From the NCBI GenBank assembly GCA_016293535.1, contig JAEDEB010000002.1:24724-88723 (forward strand): a stretch of DNA of 64,000 nucleotides. Direction: 5' to 3'. Made by a program: the position numbers and the translations under genes. Positions within the stretch are counted from its first letter, which is position 1. Each line of letters opens with the position of its first letter. Under the pieces are notes generated by a model. The model saw only the letters and a list, made by a program, of their open reading frames with translations, ran no database searches and was not told the DNA's origin. The stretch is from Bacteroidales bacterium (GTDB lineage: Bacteria; Bacteroidota; Bacteroidia; Bacteroidales; UBA932). This document shows, piece by piece, positions 1,884 to 36,173 of the stretch.

Positions 1884-1942
1884 GGCATTCTTTTTGTATC
1901 TTTACCGCGGCTTCGGAACGTGAGAAAACAATACTACAAACT

Positions 1943-2794: not shown

Positions 2795-2801
2795 TCTGCA
2801 G

Positions 2802-11018: not shown

Positions 11019-13211
11019 ATGGACAAGAAATTCAAGAGAACATTAGTCACCAGCGCGCTCCCTTATGCGAACGGGCCGGTACACATAGGTCACCTCGCGG
11101 GCGTTTACATTCCTGCCGACATATACGTCCGGTACCTGCGTATGCGGGGCGAAGACGTGCTCTTTATATGCGGTTCGGATGAACACGGAGTTCCTATTAC
11201 AATCAAGGCGCGCCAGCAGGGCGTCAGCCCTCAGGACATCGTGGATCGTTACCACAAGATAATCAAGGACTCGTTCACAGGTCTCGGAATCAATTTCGAC
11301 ATATATTCCCGCACCTCCAGCAAGGTCCACGAAAAGAACGCTTCCGATTTCTTCCGCAAGCTCTACGACGAAGGAAAGTTCGTCACGAAGGAGAGCGAGC
11401 AGTACTATGATCCCGAGGCGAAGACCTTCCTTGCCGACAGATACATAGTCGGAACCTGCCCGAAATGCGGTGCCGAGGGGGCATATGGCGACCAGTGCGA
11501 GAAGTGCGGCTCTACACTCAGCCCTGAGGAACTCATAAACCCGAAATCCAAACTCAGCGGGGCAGAACCCATAAAGAAGAAGACCTCACACTGGTACCTT
11601 CCTTTGAACGAATACGAGAGCTGGCTGTCGGAGTGGATACTCGAAGGTCACAAGGAGTGGAGGAGCAATGTGTACGGTCAGTGCAAGAGCTGGATAGACG
11701 GCGGACTCCAGCCGCGAGCCGTCAGCCGCGACCTCGACTGGGGCGTGCCGGTTCCGGTCGAAGGGGCGGAAGGAAAGGTGCTCTATGTATGGTTCGATGC
11801 ACCGATAGGATATATTTCCAACACCCGGGAGTTGCTTCCGCAGAGCTGGGAACAGTGGTGGAAGAGCGAAGATACCAAACTGGTCCATTTCATCGGAAAG
11901 GACAACATAGTATTCCACTGTATCGTATTCCCGTCAATGCTGAAGGCCTATGGGGACGGGTACATTCTTCCGGACAACGTGCCTTCGAACGAATTCCTCA
12001 ACCTCGAGGGAGACAAGATTTCCACCTCAAGAAACTGGGCGGTATGGGCGCACGAGTACCTGGAGCAGTTCCCGGGTAAGGAAGACGTGATACGTTACGT
12101 GCTGACGGCAAATGCACCCGAGACCAAGGACAACGATTTCAGCTGGAAGGATTTCCAGGCTCGCAACAACAGCGAACTGGTCGCTGTCTTCGGCAATTTC
12201 GTCAACAGGGCCGTCGTGCTGACACACAAATATTTCGGGGGCAAGGTACCAGCCCGCGGCACACTTCAGGACATTGACCGCGAGACACTTGCCCAGATTC
12301 CGCAGATCAGGGCCAGCCTTGAGAAGAATCTGGATGGCTACCATTTCCGTGAGGCTCTCAAGGATGCGATGAACATCGCGCGCGTGGGTAACAAGTACAT
12401 CTCCGATGCTGAGCCTTGGAAGGTTGCGAAGACAGATATGGAGCGCACGGCAACCATACTGAATGTGTGTCTGCAGATTTGCGCAGACCTGGCCATTGCT
12501 TTCGAGCCTTTCACTCCTTTTGCTGCGGAGAAACTCCGCAAGATGCTTGATGTGACTCTCTTCGCCGGATATGACCATCGCAAGGGGGAGCAGGAAACCG
12601 TCAACACCTACAGGGACGGCGAAGCTGCCGCACTCCACACTCTTCCGTTCGGCGGGACTGCTGTCTGCGAAGGCGCCTGCGAGGGCGGAGTCCGCTTGGA
12701 ATGGAATCTTCTGGGTGAAGAAAGCATACTTCCTGAAGCTCACCAGCTTGGAGCCGCCGAACTCCTTTTTGCAAAGATCGAGGACGACGCCATCCAGGCA
12801 CAGCTTGACCGTCTCGACGCAATCAGGGCGGAAAGGGAAGCTGCAGCAAAGGAGGAGGCTGCAAAACAGGTCGAGCCACAGAAGGCTGAAATCAGTTTCG
12901 AGGAGTTCGAAAAGATGGATATAAGGACAGCCACCGTTCTGGAAGCTGTCAAGGTTCCTAAGACCGACAAACTGCTTCAACTTACCATAGACACAGGTAT
13001 TGACAGGAGAACCATAGTCTCCGGAATCGCCGAATACTATACAGCTGAGGAGATGGTTGGCAAGCAGATTTGCATACTGGCCAACCTCGCGCCGAGAAAA
13101 ATCCGTGGAATCGAAAGCAAGGGAATGATTCTGATGGCGCGACAGGGCGACGGCAAGATGCGCTTCATCACGCCTCAGGAAATTCTGGCTAACGGCGCCT
13201 GCATAGGCTGA
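11019..13211 (+). CDS. metG: Methionine--tRNA ligase
   Basis: 730 aa. HIGH motif (PVHIGHL), zinc knuckles (CPKCG...CEKCG), KMSKS variant (KISTSRN) and a C-terminal Trbp111/EMAP-like tRNA-binding domain ([23 protein letters not shown]). Confidence 0.95.
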
Positions 13212-13223
13212 CGCAGACCGTAC

Positions 13224-13838
13224 ATGAAAAGATTTGTGCTTACATGCCTTTGCGTCCTGCTGGTTTCAGGCTACGCGACGGCAACGGAGAAGGAGAAGGT
13301 TCTCAACGGTTTTGACGGCGGAATGATGGTACATTCGGGCTTCCTGAAAGGCAGCATTCCTCAGGTGGGCATAGAGACTTCAGGAGCTCCGATCGGAATT
13401 GGAGGGGTTTTGCGACTTCACCTTGGGAAGCATTGGAGACTGGGAAGCGAAGGATATGTGTCCACGCTCCCTCAACTTCACAACGGCAGCTATATAAAAT
13501 ACGGATGGGGCGGATTGCTCGGGGATTTCTATCTGACAGCAGGACGTTTCATGCCGTTTGCCGGGCTCACCCTGGGAGGAGGAGCGCAGACCTCCTTTCT
13601 GATGAAGGAAGAGCCCGCAGAGGAGTGGGGACCGGTAGGGGAAACGTATTTCAACAAGAAAGGGTTTATGGCCATTGACCCATTCGTAGGATGCGAGTTC
13701 ATTCTTACCGGAGCCTTGCACCTCACACTCAAGGCCGACTGGCTGCTTGCCCTGGGCAAATCATCTTCCTCCGGCACAATGTCTCTGCTCAGGCCGACCG
13801 GTCCCAGAATCTATTTCGGTTTCATATTCAATCACTGA
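13224..13838 (+). CDS. Small outer-membrane beta-barrel-like protein (hypothetical)
   Basis: 204 aa with a signal peptide and alternating Gly/aromatic-rich strands. Confidence 0.5.
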   Translation: MKRFVLTCLCVLLVSGYATATEKEKVLNGFDGGMMVHSGFLKGSIPQVGIETSGAPIGIGGVLRLHLGKHWRLGSEGYVSTLPQLHNGSYIKYGWGGLLGDFYLTAGRFMPFAGLTLGGGAQTSFLMKEEPAEEWGPVGETYFNKKGFMAIDPFVGCEFILTGALHLTLKADWLLALGKSSSSGTMSLLRPTGPRIYFGFIFNH

Positions 13839-13858
13839 CACTAGACAATAATTATTCA

Positions 13859-13866
13859 TAACTTTG
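13859..13866 (+). promoter_or_regulatory. Candidate -7 promoter box TAACTTTG
   Basis: Matches TAnnTTTG about 30 nt upstream of the ATG at 13896. Confidence 0.4.
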
Positions 13867-13895
13867 GCATTGTCAAGACACAATGTCAAAGGGAT

Positions 13896-14519
13896 ATGAA
13901 ACGCATTATTGTCATTCTCATTGTCTCTACCATAATGTCAGCCGTCCCGGCAGCAGCGGCGGACAGAGAGAAGACCCTCATGAAACCCGGGCGTCCGGCA
14001 AATGAAATCAGCATCAGTTACGGCGGGCTCTCGTTGCCGCACATGGCAAACATTTTCGGCGGGATACTCGGGACGGGACTCAGCGGAGGATACTCCAAAC
14101 TTGACAAGGCATCTACCGTCGGAGCGATATGCCTCGAATACCAGCGGCATCTCGGACGTCACATCGCAGTTGGAGGATGCATAGTGGAGGAGACGGTAAT
14201 GCTTACCTTCGACAAGAAGACCGGCGAGACCGAAAGTGGGGAACCCATATATGAGGAGGGCGACCGTCAGTGCAACACCTTCCTGACCCTGATGCCGTCA
14301 GTAAAGATTCCGTGGTTCTATCGGGAACATGTCAGCATGTACTCGGGATTAGCGCTCGGAGCGTGGTACAACCCCAACGGAGGAAGCAGCAAGTTTGGCT
14401 TCGCCGGCCACGTGAGCGCCGTGGGCGTTGACGCCGGCAACAGCGCAGTGCGCGCCTTCGCGGAAATCGGTTTCGGTTTCAAGGGGCTCGCCCTCATCGG
14501 CATCAGGTTCAGTTTCTAA
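13896..14519 (+). CDS. Small outer-membrane beta-barrel-like protein (hypothetical)
   Basis: 207 aa with a signal peptide (…PAAAADRE) and Gly/aromatic-rich strands. The C-terminal residue is Phe (…IGIRFSF), as is usual for OMPs. Confidence 0.5.
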   Translation: MKRIIVILIVSTIMSAVPAAAADREKTLMKPGRPANEISISYGGLSLPHMANIFGGILGTGLSGGYSKLDKASTVGAICLEYQRHLGRHIAVGGCIVEETVMLTFDKKTGETESGEPIYEEGDRQCNTFLTLMPSVKIPWFYREHVSMYSGLALGAWYNPNGGSSKFGFAGHVSAVGVDAGNSAVRAFAEIGFGFKGLALIGIRFSF

Positions 14520-16519
14520 AACTGACCGTCATCCTGCGAATTCAGTCCATACCTTCTGATAAGCACTGAAATCTCCGGATCCTTGTTGCCGCGGAATACC
14601 TTGCTGTGGTCTTCCCTGCAGGCATCAAGATAGCACTGAACGGCCTTCTGGTCGTCTCCCAGGCGAGAATATGCTATGGCAAGCAGATAGTTCACGTCGG
14701 CATTCGGCTCAAGCGACGAAAGAACGGCCTGTGCACTGATGTTCCTGTCCAGCGCAAGGTAGGCCACCGCCGTGTTGTAGTCGGCATAAGGAGCGAGTAT
14801 GGACGCAGCCTTTTCGTAATCCCTGTCCTGTATTGCACGAACGCCTGTTGCATAGAGGGTGTCTATCTCCTCTGTATCCACAAACTCCCGCTTGCGAGCC
14901 GTTGACTTGAGATGGAAACTGAAAGTCACATTCCTGAGCTTGGGATAAAGCCTGTCCTTTACATACCTGAAGGATTTCATCTCCGCTGCCATCCTGCGTT
15001 CACGCTGATCGGGATCAGGTGCGGATGAACACGAAAAATAGATTTCCCGCTCAGCCGCGGAAATGGTCGAATCCCTCGAGACGAGTTCGTCAAGCAGGCC
15101 CCAGTTCTCGGAAAGGGAACGGGACAGAACAATCATACGGCGCGGAGCCTGATGCTTGCTTATGCTCCCCTGCTCATCGACGGAGAAACCGCCGGCCCTG
15201 ACGAGGGAATCGGAAAGCTCGCGTGCCATCCTGTCGACATGGCGCCTTAGGTTCTCCGCACGCAGACGGGAGACCTTTGTGTTGATTGCGTATGAACCGT
15301 CGGGCGACGCCGAAGAAGTGACAACCAGCGAATCAAGGGTAAAACTTCCGTTCGAAAGAACATCGGTTACATAGCCGCGCACCTTTGCGAGTTCCTCTGC
15401 ATTCCTGCCCATCGAAAGGTCCAGTTCAGCCTTTCCCGCGGCGAAGACTATGTTGCAATTCGCATTGACCCCTACCTGTCTTTCGACCATCCTCCGGACG
15501 AAACGCTTGGAATTGAGGCTTTCCTCATCGATAAGGTCGCTGACTGAACTGATTATGAACTCGATTTTCTTGGACTGAGGTGTTTCATATATCATCTTTC
15601 CCTGCTCATACACCTCACCGGTCAGGGCTACATAGGCTTTCTTGAGCTTAGGACGAGCATTTATGGTCTGGACATAATTGTACTCGAAATCTCCGTCGGA
15701 GCTGACTATGACCGTATCCAGCCGTATACCCTCCGTAACGATAGGAGCTTTCACGTATTTGGCGTACATCTTCTGCATCCTCGCCTTGCGGCGCTCGTTC
15801 CTCGCTTTGGCGGCGCGGTTGGTATAATGCTCCAGCGCATCGCGTGCAGTAACCCCGTAGGCGGAGGCGAACTTCTCGTCCGATACCTCGGTGGAGTCTG
15901 TCTTGAACGCGTAGATTTCAGGAATATAACGGCGCAGGAAGATTTCCAGCTGATCGACGTTCACGAACTTCGTCGTATCCGAGATTATGCTGTCCACGAA
16001 CTTCTCGTAATGCTGGTAACCCTTGAGCTGAGCCTTGCGGTACTCCTTTCCAGTGATAATGACCGGGTCCAGGCGAATGGAATCCTCGAGTACATACAGA
16101 TCCGGGCAGAAGCGCACCTGCCATTTGCTGTCCTGCATCTTCGCCGGAACCACCACCTTGAATTCAAGGTCCACCTTTCCGTGGCGTTCTGCTACATTCT
16201 TGAAGGTAGCGGTCACATACGAGGCCTGCAGCACGTCGTGCACGGATTCCAGTCCATTCTCGTCTTTTTCATTGCGCATCAGGTACATGACCGAACCGTC
16301 CTCATCCACATAGCGTATGGAGTCGGGCTTCGGGAGTTCGAAGGACGCCGTATCCACGACCGTGATTTCCCTGTCGGTGAGAAGAACATTGATGCCCATT
16401 TCGTTCTCGGTTATATAGCTGAGTTTCCGCTGGGTGGAGCAGGAAAAAAGAGCGGGAACAAGAAATGCGGCCACGGCTGCTGCGAAGAATATTTTCTTTT
16501 TTGGGGAAATCGTGTTCAT
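14516..16519 (-). CDS. Lipoprotein with DUF3868-like N-region, OmpA-like peptidoglycan-binding motif and C-terminal TPR
   Basis: 667 aa with lipobox LFSC followed by a non-acidic STQRK. DUF3868-like stretch (KVDLEFKVVVP...WQVRFCPDLYVLEDSIRLDPVIITGKEYR). OmpA-like signature (IVFAAGKAELD...SSASPDGSYAINTKVSRLRAENLRRHV). TPR-like tail. This is the last gene of the coiled-coil operon. Confidence 0.65.
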   Translation of the reverse strand: MNTISPKKKIFFAAAVAAFLVPALFSCSTQRKLSYITENEMGINVLLTDREITVVDTASFELPKPDSIRYVDEDGSVMYLMRNEKDENGLESVHDVLQASYVTATFKNVAERHGKVDLEFKVVVPAKMQDSKWQVRFCPDLYVLEDSIRLDPVIITGKEYRKAQLKGYQHYEKFVDSIISDTTKFVNVDQLEIFLRRYIPEIYAFKTDSTEVSDEKFASAYGVTARDALEHYTNRAAKARNERRKARMQKMYAKYVKAPIVTEGIRLDTVIVSSDGDFEYNYVQTINARPKLKKAYVALTGEVYEQGKMIYETPQSKKIEFIISSVSDLIDEESLNSKRFVRRMVERQVGVNANCNIVFAAGKAELDLSMGRNAEELAKVRGYVTDVLSNGSFTLDSLVVTSSASPDGSYAINTKVSRLRAENLRRHVDRMARELSDSLVRAGGFSVDEQGSISKHQAPRRMIVLSRSLSENWGLLDELVSRDSTISAAEREIYFSCSSAPDPDQRERRMAAEMKSFRYVKDRLYPKLRNVTFSFHLKSTARKREFVDTEEIDTLYATGVRAIQDRDYEKAASILAPYADYNTAVAYLALDRNISAQAVLSSLEPNADVNYLLAIAYSRLGDDQKAVQCYLDACREDHSKVFRGNKDPEISVLIRRYGLNSQDDGQF

Positions 16520-16531
16520 CGGTTCAGAAAA

Positions 16532-17182
16532 TCAGAACAGAAAATGAAAGGAGAGTGATATGTCGTCAAGGGTTCCGAACCAGCGCGGGCCCTGCTCCCT
16601 TATATCCATGCATTCAGGACATCCATAAAGGGTATATTTCAGGTAGCGGCCGCCCCATGCGCCCATACCCAGTTCCAGATTGCAGTAACTGCTGAGCATG
16701 AAGGTATATCCGAGCGACAATCCCGCACCCACGCCCTGACCTGTCTCCAGGGCAGGACGCCAAATCCCCGTAGTGGAGATTCCGCTGTACTGAGCCTTGA
16801 GTCCCAGCCAGAATCCGGAATATACATACCACGGCCAATAGCGGAACCCAAGCCAGCCGGTCTGCTGCTGATTCCATATCGGAGTCTTTTTCGTCTTGAA
16901 CTTCCAAGAGTTATACCTTCCGCCCAATTCGAGGGAGAAGTGGCGGCCTACGGCCACACCGAGGGCGAGGTTGGGCGTCCCGAAGTTGAGCCACTGCAGG
17001 GCATTCGTACCTATGGACCATCTCTTCATCTCCTTGCTCCTCACAACGTTCTCTGAAGCGGCGTCATCCTTCTTTGCGGAAGCTTCGGCACCGATGAAAA
17101 CATCAGCGGCAAAGACAGTGGTCGGAACGGAGAGCAACAGGACCGATGCGGCTATGCAATTAACAAAAAGAACTTTCATCAT
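16532..17182 (-). CDS. DUF3575-like outer-membrane beta-barrel protein
   Basis: 216 aa with a cleavable signal peptide (…TTVFAADV). Carries the motif WSIGTNALQWLNFGTPNLALGVAVGRHFSLELGGRYNSWKF, which I recognise as DUF3575-type, and ends in Phe. Its start overlaps the upstream stop by 4 nt. Confidence 0.65.
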   Translation of the reverse strand: MMKVLFVNCIAASVLLLSVPTTVFAADVFIGAEASAKKDDAASENVVRSKEMKRWSIGTNALQWLNFGTPNLALGVAVGRHFSLELGGRYNSWKFKTKKTPIWNQQQTGWLGFRYWPWYVYSGFWLGLKAQYSGISTTGIWRPALETGQGVGAGLSLGYTFMLSSYCNLELGMGAWGGRYLKYTLYGCPECMDIREQGPRWFGTLDDISLSFHFLF

Positions 17183-19212
17183 TCTGTAGTAGTTATCATC
17201 ATTGTTGCAGGGATATAGTCACTCTGTCTGTCGTTGTTGCCGTCTGAAATTCTCAAAGCCAGCCACAAATCTCCCGCCTTGAAAGAATCCGGGAGAGGTA
17301 CAATCTGCAGTGATATGCTCAGCACATCCCCCTCGGCAGTTGCAGTGAGAGATCCCGCAGAGGACTCTCCTTCTGAAGTCAAGACAAGCACCGACAGGGA
17401 AGAAGGGACTTTTGCAAGGGCATCTGCAGTTCCCGAAGGCAGTATCAGGAAGGACAATTCCGCGGAAGCATTTCCCACAGTGTCGCACATCACCGCCACT
17501 GAATCCCCCACATCCGGCAGCCAGTTCACCGACTGTATCCTGGAAAGAAGCTTGCTTATGTCCTTGCTCATGTCCTTGCTCATGCCCGAAAGTGCGGAGT
17601 ACAACTTCTTCAGATCGGAGACTGAAGACTTGAGAGCATTGACCGCAGTCTGAAGTTTGCGGCTGTCCCTCGACCAGGAACGGTAAAGGTCAGCCTCCTT
17701 CGCATTGAGCGAATCCAGCTGTACTGCCACGCTGTCCGCTATGCGTCCCTCCATCTCCTTGGTCGCCGACAATATGGCCGCCTCATATTTAGTCTTCATA
17801 AGTTCCTCAAGATCGGCCAGTTCGGTCTTGTACAACTCTATCCTCTCCTCATTTGCCTTGATTGCGCGCCAGCAGGAATCGAGCAGCTCGACATTACGCC
17901 CGATCAGAACGGCATTCTTCCTTATCGCCGCAGCATTCTCGGACACCTCTGCCGCCTGCTCCAGCAGAGTTGTTCCGAAAGAATCGAACTGATCATATGC
18001 ACCATTCATTTTCTCAATGGCATTCTGTATCCTCCCTATGTTAACGGAATTCGTGTCCATGTGTTCCTTCAGGGCGGCAATTGTATCCTTCTGACGCAGG
18101 ATTTCAGCGGCATTGTCGGCGATGGCGACGGCAGCAGCTGATATCTTGTCCGCATTGGAGCCGAAGTCCCTGAGCAGCGCGGCATTCTGCTCCTGAAGGC
18201 CTGCAATTCTCGCCGTCTCGGACCTGTATCCCGCCACAAGATCAGCGTATTTCTGTACCTTGCCCCGTATCTCCTTTTCAAGCGAGGTGGTAAGCGATAA
18301 TATGTACTCCTCGTTGTTCTCAAGCTCACTTTCCATCTCCGCGGCAAGGGAACGTATGCAGGAATCAAGTTTCGCCTTGGTGTAATAACCGTCGAGCAAT
18401 GTGTTGACCCAAGCCTTCATACTGTCCTCATATTTGAGGATTCCATCCTTGAAATATGCCTCATAGGCAGTCTTGAGCTCAGCCTCGGCAGCCTCCACGG
18501 TAGGGACTATGCCCGCAGCTATATCGGCCACCTCTGCTTTCATTTCATTGCCGAGATTCTCTATCGATGCGGGAATATCCTCATTGAAGGCTTTGTCTAT
18601 GGCTGCTGACAGCTTTTCCATATCCGAATCCGCCTTGTCTATTGCCGTTCTTGCGGCAGTCACGTCAGCACAGAGGGCGTTGTATTGAGCGAGGGTGGCA
18701 AAACTCGCAGAAGCCCAGGATCTCAGGTCGGAAACTTCCGAATCCGCATACCGCCTGAGTTCATCTATCCTGCTCCCGAGATTGGTGTCCGCGTTCTGAA
18801 GCTCCTTGACAGCGTTCTTGAGGGCGGAGAGTTTCGAAGACATCTCCCTGCGGTATGCAGAAATCTCCAGAGACAGGGTTCCGGACGAGACGGTGAGATC
18901 GGAATAAGCCTTTTTCTCCACCTCTGAAAGCCTGTCCTCGGACTTTTCTATCTCTTCTTCAAGAACGGCGGCCTTCTCTTCAAGGGATGAGAGATAGGTC
19001 TGCAGCGAACTTTCGAGTTCCTCAAGGTCCGGGATGGTCTCCCTTATGCGGTCAAGCTGCTGCTGTATCGTATTGATTGCCTGCTTGCCCTCCCTGTCTA
19101 TCTTGATATGGGTATCGAAGAGATTCTCGCGGAAATCACATCCGCAGAGCATCAGGAGTGCCGTTGCCGCAAGTATAGTGGACTTTTTTAACATGCCTGA
19201 AAACAATTTCAT
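17179..19212 (-). CDS. Coiled-coil surface lipoprotein, paralogue 3 (677 aa)
   Basis: Lipobox LCGC followed by DFRENLFD. About 520 aa are Pro/Gly-poor, charged, heptad-like sequence. The C-terminal ~120-aa domain starts at LLSRIQSVNWLP and contains ILPSGTADALA and RISDGNN. Paralogous to the two upstream genes. Confidence 0.75.
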   Translation of the reverse strand: MKLFSGMLKKSTILAATALLMLCGCDFRENLFDTHIKIDREGKQAINTIQQQLDRIRETIPDLEELESSLQTYLSSLEEKAAVLEEEIEKSEDRLSEVEKKAYSDLTVSSGTLSLEISAYRREMSSKLSALKNAVKELQNADTNLGSRIDELRRYADSEVSDLRSWASASFATLAQYNALCADVTAARTAIDKADSDMEKLSAAIDKAFNEDIPASIENLGNEMKAEVADIAAGIVPTVEAAEAELKTAYEAYFKDGILKYEDSMKAWVNTLLDGYYTKAKLDSCIRSLAAEMESELENNEEYILSLTTSLEKEIRGKVQKYADLVAGYRSETARIAGLQEQNAALLRDFGSNADKISAAAVAIADNAAEILRQKDTIAALKEHMDTNSVNIGRIQNAIEKMNGAYDQFDSFGTTLLEQAAEVSENAAAIRKNAVLIGRNVELLDSCWRAIKANEERIELYKTELADLEELMKTKYEAAILSATKEMEGRIADSVAVQLDSLNAKEADLYRSWSRDSRKLQTAVNALKSSVSDLKKLYSALSGMSKDMSKDISKLLSRIQSVNWLPDVGDSVAVMCDTVGNASAELSFLILPSGTADALAKVPSSLSVLVLTSEGESSAGSLTATAEGDVLSISLQIVPLPDSFKAGDLWLALRISDGNNDRQSDYIPATMMITTTE

Positions 19213-22200
19213 AAGTCGGATGTGTTTACTGTCATATATGCCTCTTCCTCAATTACGGACTCATAGGCCGGGAGGAGGGCGGAATAGGCTGCTCGACTGC
19301 CCTGGGGAACGATAATGCGCCCCACCGAAGCATAGCTGAAGGAATTATCCGCGATTGCCGGAGGAACTGCGGAGCGGAAACGTATCAGTTCCATATTGCT
19401 GTCTTCAGACGCGAAGGCCAGGGACCCTATGCTCTCCACGGATGATGGAATATCCAGGCTGGTAAGAGGGCAGCCGTAGAAGGCGCAATCCCCTATCGTC
19501 TTCACGGAAGGTGGCAGAAGCAAGTTCGCAAGAGACCCGTTGGAGAACTGCCAGTCGGAAGGTATGGTTTCAAGACTCTTGAAATACTGCAGGAGGGAAA
19601 GGTCGGATATCGCTTCAAGCGGGACGTATGCCATAGGATCGACATCCGTTACGGTATAGAAGCCTCCATAGCATCCGTCCCAGCTTTCGCCATCGCTGTA
19701 CTGAGTTTCCACAGCCTCTTTGAATTTTTTCTGCTGGACTGAATCTGCAAACTCCACCTTTCGGGCCGCAAGTGCTTTCAAGTCATCACAGTCGGACGGG
19801 ACCCTCCGGCAGAAGAAGGAATCATTGTCCAGCAGAAGGGTCTGGAGACGGCATTCCTCAGGAATGTAGAGAATTCCCGTAGCCGAGCCCCTGAAATCCA
19901 CACGGACTGCATCGAAGGAGGCTTTGAGGAGCAGGTCCCCGCCATTCCCGTTACGGATTGTGACCGAAGGCAGGACCAGGTCCGAACTGAGCCGCCCTAT
20001 GGACGCCGCATCCATGAACAGTTCCTTGACGACATTGGAGCCCAGGGAAATGGAATCTGCGAGAGAAGAAGTGAGGTCTATGGAGCTGACGTCCGGGAAA
20101 TAGCACAGTCCTTCGAGGGATGAGACAGCCGTTCCGGAAAGGTCGAAACCGGCACCGGGTTCATTGGCGGCGTCGAAAAGCACGGAATCCCTGAGGGTCA
20201 AGAGTCCGTCCGAGTTCATATCGCAGTTTGCCAGAAGATATTCCCTGAAGGCGCTGTCCGGAACTGAGAGTTCCTCGTCGACCTCGATGCATTCGAGGGA
20301 GCAGTAATCCGTCTGGAAGGAGTTGTTCCCGTCTGAAACGATGATGGAGACGCTTGCTCCCGTTTCAGGGGTGAAGAAAGTCATAGGAAGCACGGTGGCG
20401 TCCACGGTCACCGACAGAATATCTCCGTCGGCACTGACAGTACGCAGGCTTGCCGGAATCTCGCGTCCTGCCCTTGTGAGCGTGTTCAGAAAATAGGCAG
20501 AGATGAGTTCCGGATGGGAGGCAAGCCCTTCAGCCGTTCCGGAAGGCAGAACCTTGAAGCGCAAGCTTGCAGCAGCGGTATGGTAACGTCCCGCGGTATA
20601 AGTCACCGCTGCACCCTTGCAGCCGGGAACCGGCAACCTTGACATCGACTGTATTCTTGAAAGGAGTTTGTCCACCTCACTGCGGGCATTCACTATACGC
20701 TGCTGTATCGAGGCGAAACGATCATTAAGTGATTTCACTGCGGCTTCAGCCCTGCCGACCCGCGCCGCAATCGTGTCGCGTCTCTCGGCGAAACTGCCGT
20801 TGAAATCATCCAGAGAAGCGTTTACAAGGCTGAGTCTGCTCCGGACTTCCTCTTTGATCCGGCCTTCCGCCTCCTCTATGGCCGCCTGGATTGCGGCATT
20901 GTACTCTTGGCGGAGTTTCTCTTTTCTCACGACCACGGAGTCTCTGAAATCGTTGAGGTTTTCAGTATTGCTCCTGATTGCCTCGACATTGGCTTCCAAA
21001 GCTTCAGCATTCCGGGCAATGAGCGAAGAGGCTTCTGCAATATCCTCGGAGTTCTTCACTATGGACTCGAGACTTTCTGCCAGCCACTTTTCATAGCGGC
21101 TGAGCACTCCGAGACTGTCCTTCATTTCTTCCACCCTGCCGTTCTGTGCATCGGCAAGGGTTTCAAGGGTTTTAACTTCAGGAGAGATGTCTCTGATGAG
21201 AGAATCCACGACAAATATGCGGGCTGCGTTTGCCTCTATGGCGGCTGCGTCAGCATCAATCTGCGCCGCCAGGTCGATAAGAGTCTGCGGGAGAGCCTTC
21301 TCGAAAGCATCGACTTCGTCAAGACTCTTTGCGAGGTCATCAAGGTTTCGGTTGTTTGCCTCCACAAGGGAGTCCAGATGGGAAGACAGGGATTTGACCG
21401 CACTGACCAGGTAGGCCTTCTGGGCCTTGAGGGCTTCATTGAAACGAAACATGGACAAGGAAATCATCTGCTCCACGTCAGTTATGTTGGAATACCCTGT
21501 GAGCTGGTTGTTCACCCATGATTCCATTCCTGCCCTGGATGTCTCGAGCGCAGACTCGAGAGCCTTCTTGTACTCCCCTTCCACCTTTGAGCTGAAGGCC
21601 TTGACGGCAGACTCCATATCCTTACCAAGCTTTTTGATATCATCCTTCAGCTGATTCTCTGCAGCCTCAAGTGAAGCCGGGATAAGAATGTCGACAGCGG
21701 TGTTGAAGCGGGACAGGACTGAACTCACGAGGTTCTCAAGCGTAACGACGGTCTGCTGTACGGAGGACATCACGGCAACCGTGCTGTTGTACTGTTCGAG
21801 CGTTGCGTAAGTTCCCGATGTCCAGTTCTCCGCTTCCGAAAGCGCGTTGTCAGTATATTCCTTCAGCTGGTCAATCCTGTTTCCAAGTGCCGCATCCGAT
21901 TCTCTCAGTTTGGTCAGAAGAGCATTGATATCGGAAATAGCCGTTTCCATTTCCATTTTCTGAGCCTCGATCTGAGCCCGGATGTCACTCTCCATCGAAG
22001 ATATTTCCCCGCTCATTTCCACCGAAAGCTCTTCTATTCGGGCCTCCAGCTCCTTTTCCCTTTCGGAGAGTTCCTCGAGAGCGACGGCAAGTTCGTCTAT
22101 GTAGGCCTCGAGAGCCTGTCTGGTCTGCTCGGCGTCCTCCACGGACACATCCATCATTTCCACCTGACGTGCGAGAGGGTTTATGGTCTGGTCCACAAGG

Positions 22201-22328
22201 GTGTCAAGCTGGTTCCTGATATCCTCGAATCTCTCGTCGAATTCCGTACATGAAGAATTGACAAACAGCGGGACAAAAACGGAAAGCAGTGCGCCAAGGG
22301 TAGCGGAAAGTTTTCTTAAATGTTTCAT
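19209..22328 (-). CDS. Coiled-coil surface lipoprotein, paralogue 2 (1039 aa), with C-terminal leucine-rich-repeat extension
   Basis: Lipobox NSSC followed by TEFDERFED. Residues 1-683 are co-linear with paralogues 1 and 3 (RIDQLKEYTD...WTSGTYATLEQ, LLSRIQSMSRLP, VLPSGTAEGLA, VSDGNN). Residues 684-1039 add a DMNSDGLLT Ca-loop-like motif and BspA-type LRRs (VKTIGDCAFYGCPLTSLDIPSSVESIGSLAF). Confidence 0.75.
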   Translation of the reverse strand: MKHLRKLSATLGALLSVFVPLFVNSSCTEFDERFEDIRNQLDTLVDQTINPLARQVEMMDVSVEDAEQTRQALEAYIDELAVALEELSEREKELEARIEELSVEMSGEISSMESDIRAQIEAQKMEMETAISDINALLTKLRESDAALGNRIDQLKEYTDNALSEAENWTSGTYATLEQYNSTVAVMSSVQQTVVTLENLVSSVLSRFNTAVDILIPASLEAAENQLKDDIKKLGKDMESAVKAFSSKVEGEYKKALESALETSRAGMESWVNNQLTGYSNITDVEQMISLSMFRFNEALKAQKAYLVSAVKSLSSHLDSLVEANNRNLDDLAKSLDEVDAFEKALPQTLIDLAAQIDADAAAIEANAARIFVVDSLIRDISPEVKTLETLADAQNGRVEEMKDSLGVLSRYEKWLAESLESIVKNSEDIAEASSLIARNAEALEANVEAIRSNTENLNDFRDSVVVRKEKLRQEYNAAIQAAIEEAEGRIKEEVRSRLSLVNASLDDFNGSFAERRDTIAARVGRAEAAVKSLNDRFASIQQRIVNARSEVDKLLSRIQSMSRLPVPGCKGAAVTYTAGRYHTAAASLRFKVLPSGTAEGLASHPELISAYFLNTLTRAGREIPASLRTVSADGDILSVTVDATVLPMTFFTPETGASVSIIVSDGNNSFQTDYCSLECIEVDEELSVPDSAFREYLLANCDMNSDGLLTLRDSVLFDAANEPGAGFDLSGTAVSSLEGLCYFPDVSSIDLTSSLADSISLGSNVVKELFMDAASIGRLSSDLVLPSVTIRNGNGGDLLLKASFDAVRVDFRGSATGILYIPEECRLQTLLLDNDSFFCRRVPSDCDDLKALAARKVEFADSVQQKKFKEAVETQYSDGESWDGCYGGFYTVTDVDPMAYVPLEAISDLSLLQYFKSLETIPSDWQFSNGSLANLLLPPSVKTIGDCAFYGCPLTSLDIPSSVESIGSLAFASEDSNMELIRFRSAVPPAIADNSFSYASVGRIIVPQGSRAAYSALLPAYESVIEEEAYMTVNTSDL

Positions 22329-24361
22329 AGACTGCCTCCTTTTCTTGAAACTGCAACTTTCACGAAGGAAGACAGGCGGTTATTGTTCCCGTCGCTTATG
22401 CGAAGGGCGACATTGAAGGATGCTCCGTCCTCAAGAGCCGCCGCTGGCAGGGAAGAGAGCACGCATCCCACCGTAAGTTCGTCTCCGGATGCCGACGCGG
22501 CGCTTGCTGAAAAGATGGTATCAGCTCCGTATCCAGGCATATGGACATACAGGCCAAGGGCTGAAAGATTCTGAGCCAGGGCTTCCGCACATCCGGAAGG
22601 AAGTATCTTGAAATCCATGGACAACACGGCATTTCCATCCTCGGAGCACTCAAGAACATGGACCCCATCACTGTAGACCGGGAGGTAAACGACAGACTGT
22701 ATCCTGGCAAGAAGTTGCTCCAAGGCGGCCTCAATGTTCGCAAGATCCGCGAGCATAGCCTCGAGCTCGGCCACATCGGCTTCAAGGTCATCCAGAGTCG
22801 AGGACATGGAATCAAGGCGGTCGCTGATGTCATCCATATCTCCCTTGAACTGCTGTTCAAGATCGGCCACTGCATCGTCTGCATTTCCCTCCGACTCGCG
22901 TATTCCGTCTGCAATCGCCTTTTTGAAGGCAGCCTCTATCCTGAGACTCACCGCATCAAGGCTGTCGCGAAGACTGGCAGCCGCCCTTGCATTGGCAGCA
23001 ATGGCCTCTGCCTGCCTGTGTATCTGGGCGGCATTCGCGGCAATGAGTTTGTCCTGGTCAGCTATGTTCCCGGTGTTGGTATTGATTGAATCGAGCAGAA
23101 CCCGGTACCCGGCCAAGAGGTTCTCGGCATTCCCGACCGCATTCCCGTGGCGGGTCATGAGTTCGTCAAGAGCTGAGTCGTTGCTCTCAAGGGCAGTCCT
23201 GTTGTCTTCCACAAGCTTCTTCATCGAGGAGAGGTCATTCTCGCAGCCGGAAATTGCCAGGGAGTTTGCCTTTATGAGAAGTGAGTTTGCATTGATTCGG
23301 CTTGTATAGTACAGAAGGCTGTCATATTCCTTTTTCTTAGCCTCCTCCAGAGGCTCCACCCTCGATTCGAGATCGGCGACAAGTACAAGATTGTTCTCTA
23401 TGGAAAGCTCAAGAGTGCTGCCCAGACTGTTGATATGGCTGATAAGAACAGTCTTCTGTTCGTCTATTGCCACCTCCATCGCCAGGTTGAGAGAATCCAG
23501 CTTGGCCTGTATCTCCCAAGTGCGATAATAGGATTCCAGACGGACTCCCACCCAGACCATGAGGGATTTCTCGGACTCAGCTATGCTCGCAGCGAGTGTT
23601 GTCTCATAGGCGAGTCTTATCCTCTCGCCGGCCTCCCTGAGTGAGGCATTGAGACTTTCCATGGTCGCTTTGATTTCATCACCTACCCCGTCTTTCATCT
23701 TTTCAATATCCTTGAGGGCAGCTTCAATGCAGCTTGTAAGCCTGCTGTCAAGGCTCTGGGCGGCCTGCTTCGAACTCTCTGCAGCAAGTTTGACTGCATT
23801 GACATCCTCCGCCGCAGCAGCCATCTGTTCAAGAGTGGCGAAGGTGGCCGCAGTCCAATCCCTGTATGAACCAAGCTCACCGTCTATGTACTCTTTCATG
23901 GAATCTATCCTTTCTGAAAGAGCCTTGTCAGTTTCCTCAAGTTTTGCAATGGACTTGTTGATAGACTCCAGATCCTTGTCAATTATTGACTCGACCAGTT
24001 CAAGCCTGTAAACGAGATCGGCCCGGACAGCATCAAGCCTGCCAGCAAAACCATCCTTGACCGAAGCTATCCCGGCCTCAAGTTCATCTGCCTTCTCCTG
24101 CAGGGCAAGGGCTTCCTTCTCGATGGCCGCCCTGTAGGTTTCCGCATCGGAGATAATCTTATGGAAAGACTCTGCAGAGGCTTCAATGGCAGCTCTCTGC
24201 TCCTCAAGCGAGGCAATATCCTCGCTCTTGAGGTCATCCACCTCCTTCTGAAGTTGATCGACCTCCTTCTCGGCAATGTCACAAGCGACGGCGCAAGGCA
24301 GCAGAAAAGCCAACACGGCGCTGTAAGATAGACATCGCACGCGGGAAAAAGAATAAAACAT
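22325..24361 (-). CDS. Coiled-coil surface lipoprotein, paralogue 1 (678 aa)
   Basis: Lipobox AVAC followed by DIAEKEVD. Long heptad-like region with RIDSMKEYID...WTAATFATLEQ. C-terminal domain with LLARIQSVVYLPVYSDG, ILPSGCAEALA and RISDGNN. First gene of the operon. Confidence 0.75.
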   Translation of the reverse strand: MFYSFSRVRCLSYSAVLAFLLPCAVACDIAEKEVDQLQKEVDDLKSEDIASLEEQRAAIEASAESFHKIISDAETYRAAIEKEALALQEKADELEAGIASVKDGFAGRLDAVRADLVYRLELVESIIDKDLESINKSIAKLEETDKALSERIDSMKEYIDGELGSYRDWTAATFATLEQMAAAAEDVNAVKLAAESSKQAAQSLDSRLTSCIEAALKDIEKMKDGVGDEIKATMESLNASLREAGERIRLAYETTLAASIAESEKSLMVWVGVRLESYYRTWEIQAKLDSLNLAMEVAIDEQKTVLISHINSLGSTLELSIENNLVLVADLESRVEPLEEAKKKEYDSLLYYTSRINANSLLIKANSLAISGCENDLSSMKKLVEDNRTALESNDSALDELMTRHGNAVGNAENLLAGYRVLLDSINTNTGNIADQDKLIAANAAQIHRQAEAIAANARAAASLRDSLDAVSLRIEAAFKKAIADGIRESEGNADDAVADLEQQFKGDMDDISDRLDSMSSTLDDLEADVAELEAMLADLANIEAALEQLLARIQSVVYLPVYSDGVHVLECSEDGNAVLSMDFKILPSGCAEALAQNLSALGLYVHMPGYGADTIFSASAASASGDELTVGCVLSSLPAAALEDGASFNVALRISDGNNNRLSSFVKVAVSRKGGSL

Positions 24362-24435: not shown

Positions 24436-25320
24436 CTATCCAATAATGGACAGGCAAGATTCTTTATCTAAGGCAAGCTGGATGGAGAGTTCCCTGAGGT
24501 CCGCGAAACGACGCTCATCCCTGATTTTTCTCAGGAAGGTAAGCCGCATCGGAAGGCCGTAGATTTCTTCATCAAAGTCGAATATATTGGTCTCTATGGT
24601 CCTGGAGTTGGTCGTCCCTACCGTCGGTTTCACACCTATGTTGCACATCCCGTAACGCTGTTTTCCGGCAGTTTCCACCCTGACCAGATACACCCCGTCT
24701 GAAGGGACCAGCTTGAGGGGTTCATACAGGCTCATATTCGCCGTAGGGAAGCCCAGAGTGCGGCCAAGTCGGTTACCGGCAACCACAACCCCATAGAGGC
24801 TGTAGTCATAGCCGAGCATTGCGGCGGCCTGTTCCATGTCCCCGACCTCGAGGGCTGTGCGTATCTTGGTGGAACTGACTGCATAACCTGCATTCGAGGA
24901 GACGAGAGGGGCCTGTATGACATCCAGTCCGAGGCTTGAGGCCACCGCCACAAGATCCTCCGGACTGCTGCAGTCCGAGCCCATACGGTTGTCGTAACCC
25001 AGGAGCACGGCTGTTCCTGAACACAAGCCCATCACGTATTCCCTGAGGAAAGCCTCCATAGTCAGGGCTGCGAATTCCCTTGTGAAATCCAGGACTTCCA
25101 CCCTGTCGACTCCCAGGGACAGGAGCATCTCCTTCTTCTCCGTGAGAGATGACAGCAGGCGCAGCCCTCGCGCATCCTTGCGGAGCACCATGCGCGGATG
25201 AGGCCAGAAAGTGATTACCGCACTCTCTTCTCCACGGGTCTTGGCGCTTGCTACCAGTTGCCCGATTACTTCGCGGTGTCCCAGATGGACACCGTCGAAG
25301 AATCCGGTGGCTACAACCAT
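24436..25320 (-). CDS. ribF: Bifunctional riboflavin kinase / FMN adenylyltransferase
   Basis: 294 aa. N-terminal GFFDGVHLGH nucleotidyltransferase motif and C-terminal riboflavin kinase motif GFPTANM. Confidence 0.9.
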   Translation of the reverse strand: MVVATGFFDGVHLGHREVIGQLVASAKTRGEESAVITFWPHPRMVLRKDARGLRLLSSLTEKKEMLLSLGVDRVEVLDFTREFAALTMEAFLREYVMGLCSGTAVLLGYDNRMGSDCSSPEDLVAVASSLGLDVIQAPLVSSNAGYAVSSTKIRTALEVGDMEQAAAMLGYDYSLYGVVVAGNRLGRTLGFPTANMSLYEPLKLVPSDGVYLVRVETAGKQRYGMCNIGVKPTVGTTNSRTIETNIFDFDEEIYGLPMRLTFLRKIRDERRFADLRELSIQLALDKESCLSIIG

Positions 25321-28300
25321 TTTACGAGTCCGAAATCCTGTCTGTGAGGCAGGAGGCTGTTCTTAGGATATATTCTGGTCGCTACCTGGTACATACCGGT
25401 AGTCTCAGGAAGAACTGCAGCCTGGAAGGTAGCGGTACCGTCGTGAGCATCCACGAGCTTGAAGGTAACCTTCTCCCTGATGTGAAGATTGCCCTTCTTG
25501 TCAGTAGAGGTGAAGAGGAGTTCGACACCTATGTCCTCCGGATTGAGGTCAGCTATGTTGAGCACGACCTCGGAACGGATCTCGTTGTCGGAATCGAGCA
25601 CGTATGTATCGTCCGGATGGGTATATGATATGACCTCGACGTTCTTCCATGAACGGAGGACACCCTTCTTCCATGCAGCGATTTCCCTTGCCATAGCAAA
25701 ATCGTTGGCAATCATCTTCATGCTGCGCTCTGACTGAGGCTCATAATACTGTTTGCAGTAATCCGTGAGCATACGGTTGGTGGTGAAGTTGCAGGCCACC
25801 TGGGCAATGGTGTTCTTGATGTATCCCACCCACTCTGCAGAGCGTCCGGTATTCCTGTCGGTATTGTAGTATGCAGGGGCGATTTCGTTCTCAATTATAT
25901 TATATATGGTAGCAGAGTCGAGCTCGTTCTGGTATCCCTGGTCGTCGTAGGTTCTTTCCATAGGCAGAGCCCAGCCGGCTCCCTCCCTGTATCCCTCGAC
26001 CCACCATCCGTCGAGGACGGAGAAGTGCATCACACCGTTCATCGAAGCCTTCTCTCCGGATGTTCCGGAAGCCTCCTGAGGACGGGTAGGGTTGTTCATC
26101 CAGACATCCACACCCTGTACAAGCCTCTTGGCGAGGGTGATGTCATAGCCAGGCACGAAGACTATCTTGCCGATGAAGCGAGGCTGCTTGCTTATCTCGA
26201 CAATCTGGCGGATGAGGTCCTGACCGGCACCGTCGGCAGGATGGGCCTTGCCCGCAAAGATGAACTGTACAGGATGTACAGGGTCATTTACAATGGAATC
26301 GAGTCTGTCAAGGTCGCTGAAGAGCAGGGTGGCTCTCTTGTATGTCGCGAATCTCCTTGCGAAACCTATGGTCAACACGTCGTCGCGCAGGGTTTCCTTT
26401 ATGGTCACGATCTGGCGAGGAGAATAGTGACTTGCTATCTGAGGGTCAGAAAGTCTCTCCCTGATTACGTCTATAAGGGTCTTCTTGAGGAACTTCCTCG
26501 TGTTCCACACCTCCTCGTCTGAAACCGCATAAATGCCCTCGAAGCACTTGAGGTCATAGTGATGGGTCTTGAACTCAGGTCCGAACACCCTCTCGTGTAT
26601 CGCCTTCCACTCCTTCGCCGTCCATGTCGGATAGTGGACGCCGTTGGTAACGTAGCTGACGTGATTCTCTTCAGGCAGGTAACCCGGATACATGGAAGCG
26701 AATATCTCCTGGCTCACCTTGCCGTGGAGCATCGATACGCCGTTCACCTCCTGAGAGATGTTCGCCGCAAGATTGCTCATGGAGAACTTGGCGTTCACAT
26801 CGTAAGGGTCGTTCTTTCCAAGGCTCATGAGAGTTATCCAGTCTATCTTGAGCTGTTCCGGAATCTGGCCTATGTACTGGCGGAGTATGCCCTCGTCGAA
26901 GGCATCGTGACCTGCCGGAACAGGGGTGTGGGTAGTATAGAGGGAAGAAGCCCTCACTACCTCCATGGCTTCCTCGAAGCTGAGATGGTCGTTGTTGACA
27001 TACTCACGGAGCCTCTCAAGACCTATGAAAGCCGCGTGGCCCTCATTGCAGTGGTACACCTGAGGGTTGAGTCCGAGGGCACGGAGGGTGCGGATTCCGC
27101 CTATTCCGAGAAGAAGCTCCTGCTTGAGCCTGTTCTCCCAGTCGCCGCCGTAAAGCTGGTGGGTCACCTGACGGTCCTCAGGAAGGTTCTCATCGAAATC
27201 GGTGTCGAGAAGATAGAGGTCCGTGCGTCCCACAGCCACCTTCCATATACGTGCCTGCAGGGTCCTTCCCGGGAATGCAACCTGCACCTTGAGCCAGTTT
27301 CCGTCCGCGTCGAACACCTGCTCTGCAGGTATCTTCATGAAGTCCTGTGGAGTGTACTCCGCAACCTGATTGCCCTGAGCCGTGAGTTTCTGGTTGAAGT
27401 ATCCGTAGCGGTAGAGAAGACCTACGGCCACGAGGTTCACGTTCATGTCGCTGGTTTCCTTGAGGTAGTCACCTGCGAGGATTCCGAGACCTCCCGAATA
27501 AATCTTCAGGGAAGTGTCGAGTCCGTACTCCATGCAGAAATATGCAATCGACGGATCCTTTCTTTCGGCCTTTGCCGCCATATATCCGTTGAAGTCGTCC
27601 ATCACCTCTCCGAGCATCTGGAGGAAGGCCGCATCCTTGCTGAGCTCTTTGTATCTCTTTATGCTGACACGGTCAAGTATGACCATAGGATTGTGTCCCG
27701 ACTTGTGCCAGAGCTCAGAATCAATATACTTGAACAGCGCCTTTGCGTTGTCATTCCAACACCACCAGAGGTTCTTGCAGAGAGTCTCAAGGCCCGAAAG
27801 CGCCTTAGGCAGATGTCTGGTTACCATTACGCTCTGCCATTTCGGCGAGTCGATCTCTATTTTCGTGTACATGCTCTTTTCCTTTTTTGCTGCCATATCG
27901 TAGATGGCGGTATTAATAACTTTTGAAAGTGCCCTGCTATAGGCCTCCTTGTAATATTCTATCTGATTCTTCCACAGTGCGATGTCCGCAACGTCCCTTG
28001 CCGAGTCGCTGTACTTCTGCCATTGGGCTGCGGAGAGGGATGCCATTTCCTTCAGCCTTGCGGTCACAGCTCCCACGACCTCGAAATAATTTGAATCGTT
28101 CCTTTCAACCACAGTTATGCCCGGATGCTCCTTCCGATAGCGGTCGCGCACCCAGAGCCCGAAGCCGGCAAGACTCGTCGTCAGCGTAGGAACGCCGAAG
28201 GCAAGACTCTCGAGCGGGGTATAGCCCCAAGGCTCATAGTATGAAGGGAAGAACGTGGCGTCAAGACCGATGAGAAGGTCATAATAGGCCATATCGAATA

Positions 28301-34104: not shown

Positions 34105-34111
34105 ATAACGA

Positions 34112-36106: not shown

Positions 36107-36173
36107 AGTCCTTCAGTTGGTCCATTATTCTCATTCAGTCCATTTACTGTCCGCGTCCGGGCGCTGTCCCGCC

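Follow-up and report, generated by a model that had tools for sequence, protein, structure and literature searches.

A Bacteroidales operon combining predicted stalk-and-head lipoproteins with a FimX/PgmA-type gene pair

A five-gene operon

The stretch analysed here (the window) comprises 64,000 nucleotides of a Cryptobacteroides-like gut Bacteroidales bacterium (assembly GCA_016293535.1, contig JAEDEB010000002.1). Its minus strand carries a chromosomal, lineage-specific operon of five genes that unites two modules, each widespread alone. The first module consists of three long lipoproteins with predicted coiled-coil stalks, encoded by gene 1 (22325..24361, 678 aa), gene 2 (19209..22328, 1039 aa) and gene 3 (17179..19212, 677 aa). 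The second consists of a DUF3575 protein (gene 4, 16532..17182, 216 aa) and a further lipoprotein (gene 5, 14516..16519, 667 aa). By the coordinates of the open reading frame (ORF) listing, start and stop codons overlap by 4 nt at the junctions of genes 1 and 2, 2 and 3, and 3 and 4, and 12 nt separate gene 4 from gene 5. This is exactly the layout described in an earlier note, made from the sequence alone, which took the operon for a candidate surface-fibre system.

A promoter-like box, TACTTTTG (24424-24417, minus), fits the Bacteroidetes -7 consensus TAnnTTTG and lies 56 nt 5' of the gene 1 ATG, where the earlier note had placed it at about 55 nt. The consensus is not enriched in the whole window (17 occurrences against 15.5 expected), so the placement of the box, not its mere presence, is suggestive. 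The upstream gene is ribF, with Flavokinase and FAD_syn domains in Pfam. At its end lies a terminator-like hairpin of 11 bp followed by a T-run (24457-24432, minus), which appears to terminate ribF and marks the upstream boundary of the operon; the operon thus has its own start. An invertible, phase-variable promoter was considered and rejected because the intergenic region spans 74 nt and the sole nearby inverted repeat lies inside ribF. A mobile-element setting was likewise rejected, the flanks being recQ, dnaG, metG, ribF and a glycogen-metabolism cluster. The genes 3' of gene 5 are convergent to the operon. Scans with Pfam, NCBIfam, PADLOC and PHROGs detected no enzymatic, ATPase or pilin domain in the five genes, which bears out what had been noted from the sequence.

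Three paralogous stalk lipoproteins and their family

Genes 1-3 are colinear, full-length paralogues with 25-27% identity (BLASTP, E-values of 4e-46 and 3e-56). They have the motifs RIDxLxxYxDxE..W..(T/S)FATLxQY, SMKAWVN and LLSRIQSVxxLP in common. Each starts with a lipoprotein signal whose lipobox, read by pattern, is AVAC27 in gene 1, NSSC27 in gene 2 and LCGC25 in gene 3; C25 is at least 90% conserved in the alignment of the stalk family. The lipid-bearing cysteine is followed by DIAEKE (gene 1), TEFDER (gene 2) and DFRENL (gene 3). Acidic residues after this cysteine reportedly mark the surface lipoproteins of Bacteroidetes.

The stalk that follows is of closely similar length in the three proteins, with 525 (gene 1), 529 (gene 2) and 532 residues (gene 3) from the cysteine to the domain described below. 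The stalks are acidic and helical in character, with 1-4 prolines in about 525-532 residues, 30-31% charged residues and a net charge of -29 to -52. Their hydrophobic periodicity peaks at 3.55-3.6 residues with 15-19 times the mean power. A heptad a/d pattern, defined as at least 75% hydrophobic a/d positions in a 28-residue window, is present in 70-78% of stalk windows versus 31-39% in shuffled sequences. By this heptad periodicity over a long, proline-poor helix, the three proteins are predicted to form coiled-coil stalks. BLASTP, composition and periodicity therefore sustain the earlier description of genes 1-3 as paralogues with a lipoprotein signal and a proline-poor, charged, heptad-like stalk.

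The stalk ends in an immunoglobulin (Ig)-like beta-sandwich. This domain is C-terminal in gene 1, where it occupies 22337..22705 (minus, aa ~553-675) together with the 'RIQSV..LP' junction, and in gene 3 (17185..17559, minus, aa 552-676), and internal in gene 2 (20259..20660, minus, aa ~557-690). The gene 3 domain was modelled with AlphaFold 2 (AF2) from a shallow alignment of 14 rows, which gave a beta-sandwich with a predicted local distance difference test score (pLDDT) of 82.5 and a predicted template modelling score (pTM) of 0.79. Foldseek aligned the model with generic Ig V-type sandwiches at template modelling (TM) scores of 0.45-0.55; the top 50 matches were antibody-type V domains, with no pilins among them. 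A pilin-like fold for this domain was rejected, since Foldseek returned generic Ig V-type sandwiches alone. Pfam found no match to P_gingi_FimA, Mfa_like or Fimbrillin in genes 1-3, and a sequence search with the domain profile found no significant match in the PDB.

Gene 2 continues beyond its Ig-like domain with a tail of 356 residues that carries a BspA-type leucine-rich repeat (LRR) head at its end (LRR_5, Pfam PF13306; 19302..19577, minus, aa 918-1009). The match reaches 5.2e-13 and 49.4 bits against a cut-off of 27.7, and 1.1e-13 with the tail alone. LRR heads presumably mediate adhesion between proteins. The C-terminal globular domain of about 125 aa that the earlier note had seen in all three proteins is thus real, as an Ig-like sandwich in the AF2 model, but in gene 2 it is internal and the LRR_5 head had been overlooked. 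Judged by their sequences, the proteins of genes 1-3 resemble modular adhesins of stalk-and-head design that bear LRR heads. Their matches to Apolipoprotein, Baculo_PEP_C, SMC, Rad50, LmuB, JetC, SbcC and tape-measure profiles were set aside as sub-threshold coiled-coil or compositional noise. The SMC and Rad50 matches score 38-46 bits against cut-offs of 567-1087 and cover coiled-coil arms alone, with no ATPase domain.

A word-index search with gene 3 returned 26 proteins, all without a name; the Ig-domain profile, run as a full HMMER scan, expanded this set to 1,284 clusters at 50% identity, 662 of them at E<=1e-10. No Pfam or NCBIfam model covers the stalk family, and our literature searches found no published description of it. 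A genome scan with one genome per species confirmed 120 hits, from which 80 loci were kept, mostly from Alistipes, Tidjanibacter, Rikenellaceae, Cryptobacteroides, Muribaculaceae and other Bacteroidales. The family is large, nameless and confined to Bacteroidales. Contigs with family genes also sit in bins labelled Flexilinea, Lachnospiraceae, Acetatifactor, Ruminococcus, Eggerthellaceae, Bulleidia, Acutalibacteraceae and Methanomethylophilaceae (oddly labelled bins: L013, L045, L052, L056, L061, L065, L072, L073, L075, L078, L081, L082, L086 and L088). Their presence in bins labelled Firmicutes or Archaea is most likely due to mis-binning.

Family members follow a plan of lipoprotein signal, one to several helical modules, RIQS junction, Ig-like domain and an optional, variable head. 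The heads include LRR_5, LRR_4/8, DUF285, LRR_EndoS and Lcl_C/Fib_succ_major. The Ig-like domain starts anywhere from about residue 20 to residue 1375, and stalks thus vary about fifty-fold. An acidic export-type signal, with at least two D/E at positions +2 to +7 after the cysteine, is found in 77% of 44 distinct N-termini of the family, and genes 1-3 all conform to it. Most members are encoded singly and measure 1,400-1,600 aa. Tandem arrangements of two or three genes also recur, and in the sets of three a tail is repeatedly borne by one subunit and absent from the other two. The distance from the cysteine to the Ig-like domain is 418-425 residues throughout the Alistipes-type tandem sets.

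Clustering of the genes within 5 kb in the fetched loci revealed no neighbour conserved across the family, only lineage-level synteny groups. A Mfa_like_1 gene directly 3' of a stalk-family gene occurs in just five loci (L001-L003, L069 and L081). In L001, L002 and L003 (~13480-14440), as in L069 and L081, the gene before Mfa_like_1 (9.8e-24) encodes a stalk protein of 1139-1153 aa in which the helical module is repeated several times, and an AraC-type regulator is encoded on the opposite strand just 5' of these stalk genes. In common gut bacteria the stalk-family proteins probably act as adhesins and antigens.

Genes 4 and 5 and the recurrence of the operon

Gene 4 belongs to DUF3575 (PF12099; 3.2e-28, 98.7 bits against a cut-off of 21.1, model positions 14-177 of 177). 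The protein has a signal peptide and an aromatic C-terminus (..SFHFLF) resembling a beta-signal, and is predicted to be a small outer-membrane beta-barrel. A sequence search found no significant PDB match. The DUF3575 assignment of the earlier note is confirmed, and the barrel it proposed is in keeping with this prediction.

Gene 5 encodes a lipoprotein with the lipobox LFSC27, read by pattern, followed by STQRKL and thus without the acidic export signal. In the gene-5 family C27 is invariant, no acidic residues follow it, and K/R occupies positions +5 and +6. More than 5,000 homologues align over the full length at about 49% identity, none of them with a Pfam domain. The AF2 model has a pLDDT of 68.8 overall and 81-92 in the C-terminal half. 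The N-terminal ~330 residues are beta/helical and match no family.

The C-terminal half contains a predicted OmpA-like domain with a helical insert (14900..15481, minus, aa ~347-540; motif SSASPDGSYAINTKVSRLRAENL), identified by Foldseek and hhalign. In this segment (pLDDT 81-91), Foldseek matched PorE-C (6top), OmpA (4rha, 3td3, 4erh), OprF (5u1h) and Pal (1oap) with probability 1.0 and target TM scores of 0.5-0.64. The motif SASP(D/E)G..N..(L/V)S..R.E is kept in gene 5. S405, P406, G408, N413, R420 and E422 are invariant in 30 gene-5 homologues, with E or D at position 407; the conserved residues of the motif may correspond to the diaminopimelate-contact residues of OmpA and Pal structures. 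Pfam gave no OmpA match (PF00691) in gene 5 even at E<=10. In relatives PF00691 is sub-threshold, with 23.9 bits in P. gingivalis PgmA and 25 bits in a 342-aa protein of locus L008 against a cut-off of 27.2. The OmpA-like assignment of gene 5 is thus a prediction from its modelled fold and from profile homology to PgmA.

Downstream lies a helical tail resembling tetratricopeptide repeats (TPR; 14552..14860, minus, aa ~554-656), suggested by AF2, Foldseek and weak Pfam and PDB matches. Pfam TPR_2 scores 1.3e-4 and 20-22 bits, under the cut-off of 27. In the model the tail forms eight paired helices (pLDDT ~90) for which Foldseek found TPR structures at E ~0.05, and the gene-5 profile gave just weak TPR-protein matches in the PDB. 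Membership in DUF3868 was rejected. PF12984 has no match to gene 5, whole or N-terminal 331 residues, even at E<=10; a true DUF3868 protein (L007, 3.3e-9) resembles the gene-5 profile nowhere outside the OmpA-like region and helical insert; and the alignment to PgmA misses the N-terminus. Of the earlier description of gene 5 as a lipoprotein with DUF3868-like, OmpA-like and TPR regions, the OmpA-like fold holds in the model, the tail is TPR-like there, and the DUF3868 region drops out.

The closest named counterparts of the two proteins are FimX and PgmA of Porphyromonas gingivalis, whose fim locus (L094) was retrieved via the pgmA cloning primer (PMC3436787). FimX is a DUF3575 protein (4.7e-77) and aligns with gene 4 at 26% identity (BLASTP, 2e-10). 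PgmA, an outer-membrane protein by experimental localisation (PMC3436787), gives sub-threshold OmpA, DUF3868 and TPR matches, and its residues 197-470 align with the gene-5 family profile at 97.1% hhalign probability (E 5.9e-11, 253 columns). These alignments indicate that genes 4 and 5 are a pair of FimX/PgmA type in which gene 5 has a different and longer N-terminus.

Viewed from the gene-5 side, a DUF3575 gene always lies just 5' of the gene-5 homologue. FimA-type pilins directly follow the pair in L009, L011 and L094, which substantiates the earlier note's statement that a DUF3575 and OmpA-like pair usually heads type V pilus loci. Homologues of gene 5 with ~49% identity are abundant in metagenomes, one cluster alone holding 643 member sequences. 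In L009 (1-18434), L011 (1-17288) and L093 (3075-13192) such homologues accompany DUF3575 and FimA-type pilins on elements that carry a relaxase, T4SS (type IV secretion system) coupling protein, MobC, TraO or Rep3. It therefore seems that type V pilus operons are spread by mobilisable or conjugative elements.

The order of three stalk genes, DUF3575 and gene 5 recurs in the related metagenome loci L092 and L008. Positional orthologues share 38% (gene 1 and L092_a), 37% (gene 2 and L092_b), 34% (gene 3 and L092_c) and 45% identity (gene 3 and L008_b), and a partial ORF of L008 shares 40% with the LRR tail of gene 2. Since these one-to-one orthologues (34-45%) are more alike than the paralogues (25-28%), the triplication is old and all three copies have been kept. 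Across the window, L092 and L008, gene 4 shares 56-64% and gene 5 shares 74-81% identity. The L092 stalks have 533 and 533 residues from the cysteine to the Ig-like domain. The LRR head is carried by gene 2 in the window, by the third gene in L092 and by both in L008. The gene 3 orthologue of L008 is split (420-3194) into a 563-aa ORF ending in ..RIQSVSWIPT and a 358-aa ORF with the Ig-like domain and an LRR tail, which reflects either a frameshift pseudogene or an assembly error.

The downstream flanks differ among the window, L008 and L092. Relatives with MetG 87-88% identical, including a metagenome-assembled genome (MAG) of Candidatus Cryptobacteroides, keep recQ-dnaG-metG, but have other genes after metG and lack the operon there. 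Together these observations indicate that the cassette behaves as a unit in a variable spot. In the Candidatus Cryptobacteroides MAG (L095, dnaG-metG kept, MetG 87%), metG is followed by a seven-gene minus-strand cluster with PCMD and DUF4493 proteins (12239-20967). In L096, recQ-dnaG-metG are kept and housekeeping genes come after metG. The site after metG looks like a hot spot for variable envelope gene islands.

Two further arrangements place the pair beside other non-pilin proteins. L086 (2259-12172) is a tight operon of DUF3575, gene 5, two DUF4988-collagen-BACON proteins (897 and 838 aa), one of which also has DUF285, and a 758-aa stalk-family protein that ends in Fib_succ_major/Lcl_C. 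Its gene 5 falls into the pilus-type lineage (54% identity there versus 46% to gene 5 of the window). In L008 (6080-11593) the gene-5 homologue is immediately followed by a reversed pair, a 342-aa OmpA-like lipoprotein and then a 187-aa DUF3575 protein, and by a 1297-aa BACON-MACPF lipoprotein as further non-pilin cargo. The coupling of the pair to coiled-coil lipoproteins in place of pilins, on which the earlier note was built, thus recurs in L008, L092 and, with the other gene-5 lineage, L086. The note had also made its proposal depend on conserved linkage in other genomes. From the stalk side this is largely lacking, with the pair found near one of 80 loci when up to 10 kb of DNA was fetched on each side (at least 5 kb on both sides in 30 of 80 and on one side or more in 64 of 80).

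Two genes convergent to the operon (13224-13838, plus, and 13896-14519, plus) encode secreted, Gly-rich proteins of 204 and 207 aa without mutual similarity or a Pfam or NCBIfam match. Their C-termini (..IYFGFIFNH and ..IGIRFSF) are of the kind found in small outer-membrane beta-barrels, and a box TAACTTTG at 13859-13866 lies just 5' of the second. Upstream of the operon, the glycogen cluster is headed by a 1413-aa fusion of glycogen synthase and alpha-glucan phosphorylase (25311-29552, minus; Glycogen_syn, DUF3417 and Phosphorylase) and further comprises a GH57 protein, a GT4/GT5 glycosyltransferase, a debranching enzyme and a branching-type amylase (29568-36112, minus). A 775-aa ORF at 38148-40472 (minus) matches no Pfam family at E<=1e-5.

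Proposed assembly and known systems

We tentatively favour a hetero-oligomeric stalk-and-head adhesin mounted on a FimX/PgmA-type envelope base. Genes 1-3 would encode anciently triplicated surface lipoproteins, each with a lipid anchor, an acidic export signal, a stalk and a distal Ig-like domain. By export-signal rules these proteins would be extracellular, with gene 5 turned towards the periplasm; the faster divergence of the stalk proteins than of genes 4 and 5 fits exposed versus buried proteins. A stalk of ~530 residues could measure at most ~80 nm if fully extended. The three proteins may align in register and join in one hetero-oligomeric stalk, probably a trimer, that holds the single LRR binding head of gene 2 away from the cell. 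Stalk lengths of 525-533 or 418-425 residues within tandem sets suggest such in-register hetero-oligomers; this is the pattern expected of them and not proof. The matched lengths also make the fixed stoichiometry proposed in the earlier note plausible, though only indirectly. The product would be an adhesin and not a polymerising fibre, to which nothing points; the Ig-like domain matches no pilin in Foldseek.

At the base, the gene 4 barrel would sit in the outer membrane together with the periplasm-facing lipoprotein of gene 5. The OmpA-like domain of gene 5 is predicted to bind peptidoglycan and its TPR-like tail to bind partner proteins. Genes 4 and 5 could thereby form an outer membrane-wall tether or an assembly platform. 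We infer surface exposure, hetero-oligomers, peptidoglycan binding and the link between the modules from these features taken together. The base may serve surface appendages generally and would here be used by the stalk proteins in place of pilins.

Several observations speak against this arrangement. A DUF3575/gene-5 homologue lies near just one of the 80 other stalk-family loci (L086). The window, L008 and L092 represent one clade, and their shared order is one event plus retention. Most inspected gene-5 homologues adjoin pilins on mobilisable elements. Equal stalk length could stem from recent common descent, or could serve to present heads at one height on proteins that do not co-assemble. 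The gene 5 model is moderate (pLDDT 68.8), with its N-terminal 330 residues lacking an assignment. In P. gingivalis, fimX and pgmA affect fimA transcription, yet are dispensable for FimA polymerisation, and no structural role of FimX or PgmA has been demonstrated (PMC3436787).

Many of these points also favour reading the two modules as functionally independent neighbours, autonomous stalk adhesins co-transcribed with a FimX/PgmA-type pair that lost its pilins or never had any, a reading we consider doubtful. It agrees with the 79 of 80 stalk-family loci without the pair and the lack of a conserved neighbour gene, which argue that the stalk proteins do not need the pair. It also agrees with the disparity between more than 5,000 gene-5 proteins and 26 with gene 3 in the same word-index search, with the typical linkage of the gene-5 family to pilins and with the dispensability of FimX and PgmA for pilus assembly (PMC3436787). 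However, the gene 3 stop overlaps the gene 4 start by 4 nt, and the five-gene order is kept in three loci despite differing flanks and stalk genes at 34-45% identity. Moreover, a separate gene-5 lineage (L086) sits in an operon with stalk, collagen and DUF4988 proteins, and Pfam detects no pilin remnant in the locus. Somewhat less likely still is that genes 1-3 encode three alternative homo-oligomeric adhesins, a ligand repertoire or a source of antigenic variety that has stayed in tandem since the genes were duplicated. Family members mostly occur as single genes, hence homo-oligomers must be viable; heads are gained and lost between orthologues (LRR on gene 2, on the L092 third gene and on both in L008); and the fast divergence suggests diversifying selection. 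Yet stalk lengths agree within 7 residues per set at ~26% identity in two length classes, triplets repeatedly pair two tail-less members with one tailed, and the tail-less members would be stalks with just an Ig tip. Translational coupling furthermore suggests roughly equimolar synthesis.

The remaining explanations are improbable. Genes 1-3 could form a periplasmic scaffold or spacer with gene 5, akin to an Lpp-like ruler, given co-transcription with a periplasm-facing protein of peptidoglycan-binding fold and since long coiled-coil lipoproteins can span the periplasm. We regard this as very improbable: genes 1-3, unlike gene 5, have acidic residues after the cysteine, a 530-residue stalk would be several times the width of the periplasm, and the LRR, DUF285 and Fib_succ_major heads are of kinds that extracellular binding proteins typically carry. 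The high divergence rate also fits surface exposure. A phage-derived or anti-phage system is scarcely credible. The helical regions weakly match SMC, Rad50, LmuB, JetC, DruC, SbcC and tape-measure profiles, but these matches are far under the cut-offs (for example 38-46 bits against 567 for SMC) and span coiled-coil arms alone. There are no ATPase heads, lipoprotein signals are present, genes 4 and 5 have no PADLOC or PHROG match and the neighbours are housekeeping genes.

We conclude that the locus is a FimX/PgmA-type pair with non-pilin cargo next to a nameless family of predicted stalk-and-head adhesins, not a demonstrated new apparatus. The pair is among the most widespread uncharacterised gene pairs beside type V pilus genes, and the papers we searched hold few mentions of DUF3575 and DUF3868. 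In two separate gene-5 lineages the pair shares operons with stalk proteins that are not pilins, which argues against a pilin-specific role; its position next to stalk lipoproteins hints at service to surface appendages in general. The operon of the window offers a simpler genetic system in which to study this role. The matched stalk lengths provide a concrete prediction of hetero-oligomers, in a stalk/Ig/LRR family that is abundant in gut Alistipes, Rikenellaceae, Cryptobacteroides and Muribaculaceae.

A bolder proposal, which we rate as unlikely, is that the DUF3575/PgmA-like pair is a cargo-independent envelope module, that the trio forms a laminin-like 1:1:1 heterotrimeric stalk adhesin, or both. 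A barrel tied to peptidoglycan could then export, position or anchor appendages as different as pilins, coiled-coil/LRR, DUF4988-collagen-BACON and BACON-MACPF proteins. If true, a cargo-independent pair or a heterotrimer would offer a way to approach how surface lipoproteins of Bacteroidetes get across the outer membrane and remain attached to it.

Among known systems, FimX-PgmA (fimX-pgmA-fimA-E) is the closest, with the same order of a ~200-aa DUF3575 protein and then an outer-membrane lipoprotein, and with an OmpA-like domain and helical insert common to PgmA and gene 5, each of which also has a putative TPR tail. It differs in that pilins follow the pair, whereas here three stalk lipoproteins come first and the pair closes the operon at its 3' end. 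PgmA has 490 aa against 667 aa in gene 5, whose N-terminal ~330 residues are not alignable to the DUF3868 region of PgmA. Type V (FimA/Mfa1) pilus loci in general have the same kind of head pair (L009, L011, L094), their cargo, as is predicted for genes 1-3, is lipoproteins bound for the cell surface, and some stalk-family genes precede Mfa_like_1 (L001-L003, L069, L081). However, genes 1-3 have neither the FimA/Mfa fold nor a pilin Pfam match and give no hint of strand-exchange polymerisation. Type V pili extend as a chain of subunits, whereas genes 1-3 would extend by a helical coiled coil within each subunit.

Gene 5 resembles PorE of the type IX secretion system (T9SS) and Pal/OmpA lipoproteins, its best structural matches being the PorE C-terminal, OmpA and Pal domains. 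PorE joins TPR and OmpA-like modules, as gene 5 is predicted to do, in a Bacteroidetes outer-membrane lipoprotein on a surface-secretion apparatus. It differs from gene 5 in domain order, in the inserted helical module and in the lack of sequence-level family membership, and no T9SS genes lie near gene 5. The head of gene 2 recalls the BspA-type LRR proteins (Tannerella forsythia BspA), and many family members also end in LRR_5 or related heads. BspA-type proteins are usually anchored or secreted otherwise, for example through a T9SS C-terminal domain, whereas here the LRR tips would be borne by a lipid-anchored stalk of ~530 residues and an Ig-like domain. In design alone, genes 1-3 resemble YadA-type trimeric autotransporters and M-protein-type adhesins, which also combine an anchor, a coiled-coil stalk and a distal head. 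Those proteins are held by a C-terminal beta-barrel or a sortase motif, whereas genes 1-3 have an N-terminal lipid and hence the reversed polarity, and their stalk, unlike that of either type, may comprise three different gene products.

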